A DNA stretch of 32,000 nucleotides, taken from the NCBI GenBank assembly GCA_038889235.1, contig JAWAHN010000001.1:464499-496498 (forward strand), read 5' to 3'. This document shows positions 16,607 through 23,642 of the stretch, in pieces (positions within the stretch are counted from its first letter, which is position 1; each line of letters begins with the position of its first letter). Source of the DNA: Candidatus Jordarchaeales archaeon (GTDB taxonomy: Archaea > Asgardarchaeota > Jordiarchaeia > Jordiarchaeales > Freyrarchaeaceae). Made by a program: the position numbers and the translations under genes. Under the pieces are notes generated by a model. That model made no database searches, was not told the DNA's origin, and was given only the letters and a program-made list of their open reading frames with translations.

Positions 16607-16699
16607 GGGCCCCTAGCTCAGCCTGGTAGAGCTTAGAGCGCTAAAAGCACCCGGTTCGCACCCGGGAGGCCGCGGGTTCAAATCCCGCGGGGTCCACCA
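16607..16699 (+). tRNA. tRNA-Ala(CGC) with a 16-nt non-canonical intron at about 22/23 (16630-16645); CCA encoded
   Basis: Acceptor GGGCCCC/GGGGTCC with G3:U70 and A73. Anticodon stem CCCGG/CCGGG, loop TTCGCAC. T arm GCGGG-TTCAAAT-CCCGC. The 16-nt D-arm insertion fits a BHB motif. Confidence 0.93.
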
Positions 16700-20402: not shown

Positions 20403-20487
20403 TGAACCACCTTCGAAAATAGAACTTTACAGGTAGATTTTTGAGTAAGTGTGTGGGACGCAGAAAGGTTTTATTAGAAAATGTTGA

Positions 20488-20659
20488 CGGGCCCCGCGGG
20501 ACTTGTTCTGGGAAACCCATTTGAACCCTTAGCCGGGAAGGGTGAACCCCCTTGGACCCTGCGACCACCAGCTTTCTACGCTTAGGGCACCGCAGGCGTA
20601 CGCCTCAAAACGTTGGCGCCCTGTCAGGCATTAATAGATCCTGGCTGGGCGAGGGGCCC
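20488..20659 (-). tRNA. tRNA-Arg(GCG) with five BHB introns (20a/21, 29/30, 37/38, 50/51, 58/59)
   Basis: Removing 20623-20637, 20598-20613, 20574-20589, 20529-20560 and 20503-20520 gives a perfect 75-nt cloverleaf: GGGCCCC TC GCCC AGCCAGGATA GGGC G CCAGC CTGCGGA GCTGG TGGTC GCGGG TTCAAGT CCCGC GGGGCCC G. Each intron has a 4-bp central helix with its upstream exon. CCA is not encoded. Confidence 0.88.
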
Positions 20660-20684
20660 GTGAAGAAGAAATGTAAGCGCCGCA

Positions 20685-20700
20685 TATTAAGCTTTCCTTT
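20685..20700 (-). promoter_or_regulatory. BRE-TATA promoter of tRNA-Arg(GCG)
   Basis: Minus strand AAAGGAAAGC-TTAATA; TATA-like box 26-31 nt upstream of tRNA G1. Confidence 0.6.
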
Positions 20701-20722
20701 AGCGGTTGTGCTGGAAGGAGAT

Positions 20723-22609
20723 TTACATTTTCGGCGGTATTTCTATGCCAAGCACTTTCATAGCGTTTTTCAGCGTTTGTAGTGTTACTTGTACTAGTGC
20801 AAGGCGCGCTTTCCTCGTTTCAGGGTCGTCTGCTGAAAGAACGGAGCACTCTTCATAGAACTTGTTAAACTTTACTGCCAACTGGTGGGTGTACTCTGCT
20901 AATATGTTTGGCTTGAGGTTTTCCGCGGAAAACAAGATTACTTCCGGGAACTTTGCTATATGTTTGATTAGGTCGGCTTCTCTTTGCGTTGAGAGCTTTT
21001 CAGGGTTTATCTCCGGGCTTGGAGACTCTCCCGCCCTTTCAAGTATGCTTTTAGCTCTAACCGCCGCGTACTGTATGTATGGCCCTGTTTCCCCGTCAAA
21101 GTTTGTGACTTTTTGGTAGTCGAATATTATTGTTTGCTCTGTGCTGAACTTTGCAAGCCAGTATCTTACAGCACCCACTGCTATTATCTCGGCTATCTGT
21201 CTTTTCTCGAGCTCCGAGGCGTCGGGGATATTCTTGTTCACTTGTTCATAAGCGCACAGCATAGTCTGGTTTATGACGGCGTCGGCGTGATACCCAACCC
21301 AGTTCCCTTCCCTTCCCGAGAACCTTTCCCCCATAAGCTGGACGTGTTTGTATGAAAGGTGTATGGAGTTCTCGGCCTGTTCCAAGTATCCCAGCAGCTT
21401 TAGGCACGCTCTAACAGTCTTCTGCAAGTATTCTTGCTCGTATCCTATGACGTTTATCACCCTGTCTGCTCTCGCGAAGCAAGTCATGGGTGTGGCGAGT
21501 ATTGGAGATGTCGTCCAAAGGTCCTTTCCGTTGAATTGCTTGTGCCAAGGGCGGTACTTCAAGTCTGCTTCAAGAAGGCCGAACTTCCAAAGCTGGTATG
21601 CTATGTCGTGGGCAACGTATGTCGGAACCATGTTAGACCTAACAAGAACCTTGTCGGGGTTCTTTTTGTCTTTAAATTCCTCTAGGCGGCTGAGTTTTGC
21701 CACAAAGCAACCCTTGTATTCCCCTTCAGTTTCCCAGACGAAGTACTCAGACTTTTCGAGGAGTTTCATAGTGCGTTCCCAGAGGCGGGCTTTCGAAATG
21801 TCACTTTCCCAGACAAGTAAATCGTAGGTTATCCCCACTCTAGCGGCTGTCTCAAGGTTTGACTCCACGCATTTCTCGGCGAGCTGCCTGCTGAAAAGTG
21901 AGACTTCACCGTTGCTTAGCATTTGTTTCATGACTTCGTCTACTTCAGCCTCGAGTTCAGGGTTCTTTTCCAGCTTCTGGGCTGCCTTAGCGTAGACCAG
22001 CCCGTACCAAAAGTCGAGTTTCATGTCCCTATCCCTTGGAACCTCTAGGTGCAGGTTGTTTAGGAACGCCCAGACTAGGACCCCCATTTGGCGGCCTAAA
22101 TCGTCTATGTAGTTTTGGACTTCGACATTCCAACCGCAGGCTCTTAAAAGGTTGGCAACTATGTCCCCTAAAACAGCGTTTCTTAGGTGCCCTATGTGGA
22201 GAGGCTTAGTAGGGTTAACTGCAGTGTGCTCGACTACTACTTTCCTCCCCTTTCCTATGTCGCAAAAACCGTACTTGTCCCCTTCCGCCATAACGGTCTT
22301 CACTACAGCACTTGCAAGCCTCACTTTATCGAGGAAAAAGTTCACGTAGCCTGGCTCTACGGCTTCAACACGCTCAACGAAGTCCGGCTTTTCCATGCAC
22401 GAAACGATTTCTCTGGCTATTTCAAACGGTGTACGCCTTAGATGGCGGGCAAGCTTAAACGGGACGGTTGAAGATACATCGCCAAGTTTTGGGTCAGGAG
22501 GCTCAGACAAGTTTGAGACATCGCTCCTTGAAACCGCATTTGAAAAACCAAGCTTTTCCAAAGTCTGCCAAAGAGCGTCTGCAATACTCGCTTTAACCGT
22601 TAGAATCAT
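20723..22609 (-). CDS. argS: Arginine--tRNA ligase (archaeal type)
   Basis: EHTAVNPTKPLHIGHLRNA (HIGH), ETGPYIQYA, DALR domain and C-terminal ...IPPKM. ATG at 22609 preferred because of the GGTGG SD; the ORF track uses GTG at 22618. Confidence 0.96.
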   Translation of the reverse strand: MILTVKASIADALWQTLEKLGFSNAVSRSDVSNLSEPPDPKLGDVSSTVPFKLARHLRRTPFEIAREIVSCMEKPDFVERVEAVEPGYVNFFLDKVRLASAVVKTVMAEGDKYGFCDIGKGRKVVVEHTAVNPTKPLHIGHLRNAVLGDIVANLLRACGWNVEVQNYIDDLGRQMGVLVWAFLNNLHLEVPRDRDMKLDFWYGLVYAKAAQKLEKNPELEAEVDEVMKQMLSNGEVSLFSRQLAEKCVESNLETAARVGITYDLLVWESDISKARLWERTMKLLEKSEYFVWETEGEYKGCFVAKLSRLEEFKDKKNPDKVLVRSNMVPTYVAHDIAYQLWKFGLLEADLKYRPWHKQFNGKDLWTTSPILATPMTCFARADRVINVIGYEQEYLQKTVRACLKLLGYLEQAENSIHLSYKHVQLMGERFSGREGNWVGYHADAVINQTMLCAYEQVNKNIPDASELEKRQIAEIIAVGAVRYWLAKFSTEQTIIFDYQKVTNFDGETGPYIQYAAVRAKSILERAGESPSPEINPEKLSTQREADLIKHIAKFPEVILFSAENLKPNILAEYTHQLAVKFNKFYEECSVLSADDPETRKARLALVQVTLQTLKNAMKVLGIEIPPKM

Positions 22610-22692
22610 GGCTACCACCGGCCAGTGCTTGGAAACCTAGCTTATTTAACTTGATAATTATCATTATCTTTTAGTTTTAAAATTGAGAAGGT

Positions 22693-22849
22693 TGGCGGGT
22701 CTGGAGGGAGTCTCACCCTTTCAGGTTTTGAACCCTCGATCGCCGGCTTTCCCCTGCAAGGTCCCCCGTTATCGACTAGTTCTTCTCGGTGGAACCGGAG
22801 GCCGGCGCCTGTAGGCGTTTGCAGCATATCCTGGCTAGGCCACAGACCC
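22693..22849 (-). tRNA. tRNA-Arg(CCG) with three introns (21/22, 37/38, 59/60); CCA encoded
   Basis: Removing 22811-22826, 22749-22794 and 22710-22726 gives GGGTCTG TG GCCT AGCCAGGATA AGGC G CCGGC CTCCGGA GCCGG CGATC GAGGG TTCAAAT CCCTC CAGACCC G CCA. Confidence 0.9.
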
Positions 22850-22875: not shown

Positions 22876-22890
22876 AAATAAAACTTACCG
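22876..22890 (-). promoter_or_regulatory. TATA-like promoter of tRNA-Arg(CCG)
   Basis: Minus strand CGGTAAG-TTTTATTT, 27-34 nt upstream of tRNA G1. Confidence 0.5.
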
Positions 22891-22941
22891 AGAAAGAAGA
22901 CTGTGTCTATTGTAAAAGTTTTTGAGCTGTTTTAGCTGCTA

Positions 22942-23106
22942 GGGGTGTTTGGAGGGTGTATCTCGCCTCGATGACGGTGTGGTAGCCATTGGAGGCGTGG
23001 TACAATGTTCCTCGAGGCGGGCTCTGTGGTGCCCGCCGATGCGGCTCCCGATGACCCTGCAAACGGTGAGCAGGTGACGAGGAAGAAGCCCATAGCTACA
23101 ACACCC
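22942..23106 (+). ncRNA. Candidate structured ncRNA of unknown class with two kink-turn-like hairpins
   Basis: Hand count about 61% GC (97/160) versus about 34% in the preceding 80 nt. Closing stem GGGTGTT/AACACCC, several internal stems and a repeated CGATGAC motif. Confidence 0.4.
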
Positions 23107-23147
23107 AAAACAATCAAAAACACCCAAACAAACAACACGGGCAACCA

Positions 23148-23642
23148 CTAGATATTAAGCCACCATGCTTGCCGTTTGCCTTCCACGCGAGCACGTATGT
23201 AGACTAGCACGGGTTTTCCCAGTTCTCTCTCGGCCCTCGATGCTAGCTCTCTCATCTTGTTAAGAATTTGCCTCCTCTTTAGGCCAACGACTTTTTCTAG
23301 CTCGCGTGTAGTCGCCCCCCTTTCCCTGAGTAGGTATTCAACAATTTTCCGCTCATTTTCGTCCCTGCAAATTTTGTAAAGGGGGTGTGTTTCTACAACA
23401 AGCTTGCCAGAGCTTATGCAGGATAAACCGTTTTCTAGGAAGGCGACCCGTTTTTCAAGCTCTTCCAGCCTACGAAGTAGTTCGTCTCCTACTCCGGTGA
23501 GCTTACCTTGAAGTTTTTCCATTATAGCCTGCCTTATGAATTCCGATCGCTTTCCCCGCCCAACTTCCTTTTCAAGTAACCCTAGTATGTCGCGGGGTAT
23601 CTTAACGGAGACTACTACTTCGTTCAAAAGTGAGACCTCCAC
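23148..23642 (-). CDS. CopG/RHH - coiled coil - winged HTH transcriptional regulator
   Basis: N-terminal VVVSVKIP...RSEFIRQAI (RHH), LRRLEELEKRVAFLE coil, and C-terminal ERKIVEYL...ATTRELEKVVGLKRRQI (HTH). Confidence 0.75.
   Translation of the reverse strand: MEVSLLNEVVVSVKIPRDILGLLEKEVGRGKRSEFIRQAIMEKLQGKLTGVGDELLRRLEELEKRVAFLENGLSCISSGKLVVETHPLYKICRDENERKIVEYLLRERGATTRELEKVVGLKRRQILNKMRELASRAERELGKPVLVYIRARVEGKRQAWWLNI

Follow-up and report, generated by a model that had tools for sequence, protein, structure and literature searches.

In Freyarchaeia and Atabeyarchaeia, introns are found in 92-95% of tRNA genes, over half of them with several (Valentin-Alvarado et al. 2024, PMC11291895). 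Goswami, Ghosh and Sinha (bioRxiv 10.64898/2026.10.13.758758) report 2.01 intervening sequences per gene in Jordiarchaeaceae and 2.42 in Freyrarchaeaceae, with a maximum of five and a median length of 22-23 nt. According to the same preprint, the introns of Asgard tRNA genes occupy many positions in the D- and T-arms, and their history is one of repeated independent gains and recent terminal gains, with little copying between genes and an arrival route that is unknown; nested introns are not mentioned. In the accounts of Thermoproteales drawn on here, Pyrobaculum and Thermofilum carry several BHB introns per gene, at non-canonical positions, which are excised by an (αβ)2 EndA that has a CSL loop (Sugahara 2007, 2008; Fujishima 2010; PMC4090602). 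A loop lysine gives (αβ)2 EndA the capacity to cleave relaxed and non-canonical sites, and the specificity loop is found across Asgard archaea (PMC5829648). The intron of archaeal tRNA-Trp can carry a box C/D guide RNA (PMC4090602).

The window, that is, the whole stretch of 32,000 nt analysed here, contains a tRNA-Arg(CCG) gene with three introns to be spliced out, which is a real gene of an Asgard archaeon. Its parts and the neighbouring features used below are as follows.

22693..22849, minus strand: precursor tRNA-Arg(CCG) gene, 157 nt, with the encoded CCA at 22695-22693
22827..22849, minus strand: exon 1, tRNA positions 1-21, 23 nt, holding the arginine identity base A20
22811..22826, minus strand: intron 21/22, 16 nt, relaxed BHB
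22795..22810, minus strand: exon 2, positions 22-37, 16 nt, anticodon CCG at 22798-22796
22749..22794, minus strand: intron 37/38, 46 nt, central helix 4/4, inner helix 1 bp
22727..22748, minus strand: exon 3, positions 38-59, 22 nt
22710..22726, minus strand: intron 59/60, 17 nt, strict BHB
22693..22709, minus strand: exon 4, positions 60-76, 17 nt, G73 and CCA
22876..22883, minus strand: AT-rich box, 34 to 27 nt upstream of G1, with invariant TTTATTTG columns in 4 genomes
20723..22618, minus strand: argS (arginyl-tRNA synthetase), about 75 nt downstream of Arg(CCG) on the same strand, the synteny marker for orthology
20485..20659, minus strand: tRNA-Arg(GCG) with five introns (20a/21, 29/30, 37/38, 50/51, and 58/59), the comparison gene

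Removal of the introns joins exons of 23, 16, 22, and 17 nt into a class I cloverleaf of 78 nt, with an acceptor stem of 7 bp, a D stem of 4 bp, and anticodon and T stems of 5 bp each. All 20 tested stem pairs are formed, and the spliced product carries the anticodon CCG, A20, G73, and the encoded CCA, in agreement with the initial annotation, which had described a perfect 78-nt tRNA including CCA. A BHB motif, strict or relaxed, is present at every exon-intron boundary (central/inner/outer helices of 3/1/3, 4/1/7, and 4/3/5). In the 21/22 motif, AGGA faces GCCT in a central helix with three of four pairs formed and A20·G as the mismatch, flanked by an outer helix of 3 bp and an inner pair of 1 bp. 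The 37/38 motif has a complete central helix, CTCC/GGGG, with one G-U pair, an inner helix of 1 bp, and the anticodon stem as its outer helix. In the 59/60 motif, the TTCA/TGAG central helix is again complete (4/4), the inner helix is CCT/GGG (3 bp), and the outer helix has 5 bp. The three introns end in AC, AA, and AC, respectively, which is the genome-wide pattern (AA in 64 and AC in 11 of 98 introns).

To place the junctions, the DNA is aligned to a hand-coded archaeal tRNA profile, with introns permitted anywhere and a bonus for BHB motifs. The search covers the whole genome and is given neither gene nor intron positions, so it checks the proposed junctions independently. The same three junctions are recovered. 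The initial annotation, which had proposed a tRNA-Arg(CCG) with three introns, is therefore borne out base for base, and every detail it gave of their sizes and helices (16 nt at 21/22, relaxed with an A·G mismatch; 46 nt at 37/38; 17 nt at 59/60) is correct. The region scores 62.9, whereas the scores of 150 dinucleotide shuffles have a mean of -6.2 and reach 9.1 at most. The same gene is present in independent DNA runs. Standard annotators miss or misname such genes. ARAGORN and Rfam make no call at the Arg(CCG) gene (22693-22849), and ARAGORN calls a tRNA-Ala(CGC) gene elsewhere in the window (16607-16699, plus strand, with a 16-nt intron at 22/23) as tRNA-Leu(TAA). The intron of this Ala(CGC) gene is identical in Ala(TGC) at C1:1088321, which suggests duplication of a whole gene; likewise, Gln(CTG) and Gln(TTG) have both of their introns in common.

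The ArgRS encoded beside Arg(CCG) is 84% and 82% identical to the proteins of a Jordarchaeales MAG and of Ca. Jordarchaeum sp. LHC_1308, both of the same genus. This places the host in the class Jordarchaeia of the Asgard archaea; it comes from hot springs. Our census counts 46 native tRNA genes in its genome. They form a complete archaeal set, with Arg(CCG) in the CCG slot, and all 46 contain introns. One intron is found in 13 genes, two in 14, three in 15, four in 3, and five in 1, so that 33 of the 46 have at least two and three is the commonest number. The mean of about 2.24 per gene is an estimate from an approximate census, in which Asp(GTC) and one Ser gene are assigned an incorrect anticodon and the search does not resolve Tyr or the variable arms of class II tRNAs. 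Positions 59/60 and 37/38 are both among the top three for intron use across the host tRNA genes. Tyr(GTA) (G000:C1:1059725-1059890) and Ser(CGA) (G000:C1:1018102-1018308) have inserts of 94 and 61 nt that the search does not resolve; these are probably several introns around the anticodon and the variable arm.

The history of the three introns can be followed in orthologues beside argS. In all 10 class genomes where argS is found (the host and 9 relatives), it is flanked by tRNA-Arg(CCG) and tRNA-Arg(GCG). The trio (20485-22849, minus strand) lies on a single strand in the host family, and one tRNA gene is inverted in the other family. All 10 class genomes have the 59/60 intron of Arg(CCG). 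The 37/38 intron is present in 9 of 10, with the junction in G005 placed by eye, and is absent in G004. The 21/22 intron occurs in the three genomes of the host genus only (3/3), being absent from the sister genus and from all six genomes of the other family. The gene of G004 lacks both the 21/22 and the 37/38 introns and has an intron of its own at 51/52. With such naturally intron-less forms, the D-loop and anticodon junctions can be placed independently of the BHB motif. Among the orthologues, the exons are conserved (exon 1 is invariant in the 4 genomes of the host family) and the intron interiors are divergent, with the four intron bases that pair with the exon retained. In G005, exon A57 is replaced by G and its intron partner T by C, a compensatory change. 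A metagenome search for further orthologues returns four loci, all identical to three genomes already compared; in the relative G001, whose genome is 73% complete, the gene is not found. On this pattern, with polarity taken from GTDB ranks and not from a tree built here, the T-loop intron position appears to be old within the class, the D-loop intron would have been gained on the stem of the host genus, and the anticodon intron would have been lengthened or replaced recently. The orthologue series is a tidy dated record of gain and turnover, with a D-loop gain on the genus stem, anticodon introns of 15, 17, and 46 nt in a single genus, and a compensatory change between exon and intron.

The D-loop and T-loop introns of Arg(CCG) each lie one base away from those of Arg(GCG) (21/22 versus 20a/21 and 59/60 versus 58/59), as the initial annotation had noted in arguing for independent insertions. 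The offset is insufficient for that argument, because intron sliding after copying could yield the same. Independent gain is nevertheless supported by the distribution of the introns among relatives. Every one of the 10 class genomes has the 20a/21 intron of Arg(GCG), whereas the 21/22 intron of Arg(CCG) does not occur outside the host genus. Conversely, the 58/59 intron of Arg(GCG), whose placement is based on the BHB motif, is confined to the host family (4/4), whereas the 59/60 intron of Arg(CCG) is class-wide. In addition, a separate 59/60 intron is present in the Arg(GCG) gene of G006 (about 1319-1490). This gene is the sole Arg(GCG) with such an intron, which is 29 nt long; its interior has a perfect 4-bp TTTC/GAAA register, making it a possible candidate for a nested intron.

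The alternative that survives best is that the 21/22 intron arose as a copy of the 20a/21 intron in the neighbouring Arg(GCG) gene and later shifted by one base, in which case the two would not be independent. The D-loop exons of the two genes, 2.2 kb apart, are identical, the 3' ends of both D-loop introns are similar and contain GCCT, and the mismatch of G with A20 is conserved across the three congeners. However, the common 3' ends are imposed by pairing with the same exon bases, and the unconstrained parts of the two introns show no more similarity to each other than shuffled sequences do (P 0.83-0.98). Copying among the host tRNA genes was considered more generally and rejected, as the best matches of all three Arg(CCG) introns to other introns of the genome are at the level of chance (P 0.09-0.54). 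Moreover, copying between genes is rare in Asgard archaea, at 1.5% compared with 28% in Thermoproteales (bioRxiv 10.64898/2026.10.13.758758). We therefore regard copying followed by sliding as unlikely, and favour independent gain.

The single unusual part of the gene is the 46-nt intron at 37/38. It is one of the longest in the host genome; the intron at this position is 15 and 17 nt long in the congeners and 20-23 nt in the other family. In principle, it could be two nested introns spliced in a fixed order, which would bring the total to four. A BHB intron of 16 or 28 nt would then have entered an older short 37/38 intron recently and would be the first to be excised, an arrangement to which we give a slim chance. 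The intron exceeds those of the congeners by about 29 nt, the motif of a G-run plus A that marks the 3' end occurs twice, and two internal registers resemble a BHB: one at intron positions 7-34 (central 4/4, outer 3 bp, bulges AC|C twice), whose removal leaves 18 nt, and one at positions 11-26 (16 nt, central 3/4, outer 4 bp). When all BHB registers are enumerated, however, 33% of 1000 shuffled intron interiors contain an internal motif at least as good as the best one here, and excision of either candidate gives the outer intron no better inner helix. An apparent homology between the 3' part of the 46-nt intron and the short introns of the congeners, seen in a MAFFT alignment, is not significant (P 0.55 and 0.22), and no segment of the intron is significantly like them (P 0.22-0.55). 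Two nested introns are accordingly very unlikely. If true, the arrangement would be a very recent gain with its before-state kept in the congeners, useful for learning how Asgard tRNA introns arrive.

The simplest reading is that the 46-nt intron is a single intron, lengthened or replaced on the branch of the host species. As for a donor, no exact match of at least 14 nt is found elsewhere in the host genome, and the 24-nt core of the intron has no exact match in viral contigs. The intron matches no Rfam family, and neither box C nor box D can be read from its sequence. In the lowest-energy fold, the 5' bulge of the 37/38 motif, and with it the splice site, is paired with the intron. The energy needed to open it, 6.5 kcal/mol at 37 °C and 3.8 at 70 °C, places the intron 17th among 98 (median 2.8). 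The cost resembles that of the 37/38 intron of Arg(TCG) (6.9) and is no outlier.

The weakest alternative, that Arg(CCG) is a decaying copy with an anticodon intron that can no longer be spliced out, CGG codons being left to the intron-less Arg(CCG) of contig C6 or to wobble of Arg(UCG), is hardly credible: the predicted fold does occlude the 37/38 5' splice site and an intact intron-less Arg(CCG) does lie in the same bin, but such occlusion is no outlier among the 98 introns, the gene has intact and conserved exons, stems, CCA, and promoter box, C6 has 85-93% DNA identity to Desulfurococcaceae/Thermosphaera MAG contigs, and its partial initiator-tRNA copy is unlike that of the host genome. 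Contig C6 (G000:C6; 5.7 kb, 41.6% GC) carries its intron-less tRNA-Arg(CCG) as the 47th tRNA gene of the bin, and a matching Desulfurococcaceae/Thermosphaera MAG contig has an intron-less Arg(CCG) at the equivalent place. Judged by these matches, C6 is most likely mis-binned or a foreign island. We considered its intron-less gene as the 'real' Arg(CCG) and rejected it, as C6 is probably foreign. Three tRNA-related segments are found on C6 (226-468, 4576-4624): the intron-less Arg(CCG), its partial 3' repeat 4.1 kb away, as at an integration site, and a 3' fragment of an initiator tRNA. An F420-ligase-family gene on the same contig is 87-92% identical to Desulfurococcaceae proteins. The arrangement resembles an island that has integrated into a mis-binned contig.

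As a whole, the locus is best explained, with high confidence on our part, as a native CGG-reading tRNA-Arg(CCG) made from a promoter-driven precursor with three BHB introns of the history given above. The analysis itself covers the sequence anatomy, the orthologue pattern, and the presence of the enzyme genes. The host genome has two EndA paralogues. The alpha subunit has 3p1z_B as its best PDB match (E 4e-47) and keeps the catalytic residues Tyr134, His142, and Lys173; its Lys51 aligns with K44 of the specificity (L1/CSL) loop. In the second paralogue (beta), the catalytic His is missing, as read from the translation. RtcB is encoded as well. The host is thus predicted to possess a two-subunit EndA of broad specificity and the RNA ligase RtcB.

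Arg(CCG) would serve as the host's native reader of CGG codons. Transcription from the conserved promoter in front of the gene would yield a precursor of about 160 nt, which would then undergo cleavage and ligation. The three motifs use non-overlapping exon bases, so any splicing order should be possible, and the order is probably free. The D-arm can fold only after excision of the 21/22 intron, because G23-C25 pair with G15-C17 in the motif. In RNA run X4, a random-primed metatranscriptome, one contig covers 22719-22902 at a depth of 2.3; it is unspliced and possibly derives from DNA. This contig has one extra base at window position 22754, in the 46-nt intron next to the central helix, which is left intact; the base may come from a related strain or, given one contig at depth 2.3, may be an error. 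RNA run X7 has no contig over the gene. No joints at the Arg(CCG) splice sites are found in the contigs of the RNA runs, which are unreliable for the splicing of a 78-nt RNA.

The conserved AT-rich box upstream of Arg(CCG) is a probable archaeal TATA box, judging from its position and conservation; a sigma-70 promoter scan of the region was set aside, the host being an archaeon. Directly upstream of the promoter lies a repeated element of 255 bp (window about 22894-23150). The element has 4 copies in the host genome (97%, 73%, and 70% identity) and many high-depth variants in the hot-spring DNA runs and RNA run X4. It is found in none of 10 relatives and has neither an Rfam nor a phage match. 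Two of its copies lie about 300 bp or closer to TnpB-like ORFs, as judged by eye. The element may be mobile but non-autonomous, or it may be a structured RNA.

Taken alone, Arg(CCG) is of little importance; it cleanly illustrates a trait already described in the literature. The series of orthologues does not render the question of intron arrival directly testable, and it could furnish substrates for probing the substrate range of Asgard EndA. The published tRNA sets of Jordiarchaeia, Freyarchaeia, and Atabeyarchaeia are 92-98% interrupted, with about 2.0-2.4 introns per gene; the host, of the same lineage, has 46 of 46 interrupted, with an estimated mean of 2.24. Compared with the published Jordiarchaeia set, Arg(CCG) is no different in kind, its 46-nt anticodon intron being about twice the median of the preprint. 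Multiple BHB introns at non-canonical positions and, by prediction, excision by an (αβ)2 EndA with the CSL loop are features that Arg(CCG) has in common with the Thermoproteales genes, so far as the accounts cited above describe them; in those accounts, the Thermoproteales introns recur in near-identical form across tRNA types, by transposition, whereas the Arg(CCG) introns are without relatives in the host genome. The tRNA-Trp intron with a box C/D guide (PMC4090602) and the Arg(CCG) intron are both long introns at 37/38, but the latter is without boxes and is not conserved in congeners. The host's own Trp intron, of 79 nt, has C/D-like boxes. In every tested respect, Arg(CCG) fits the published class, of which it is an ordinary member.
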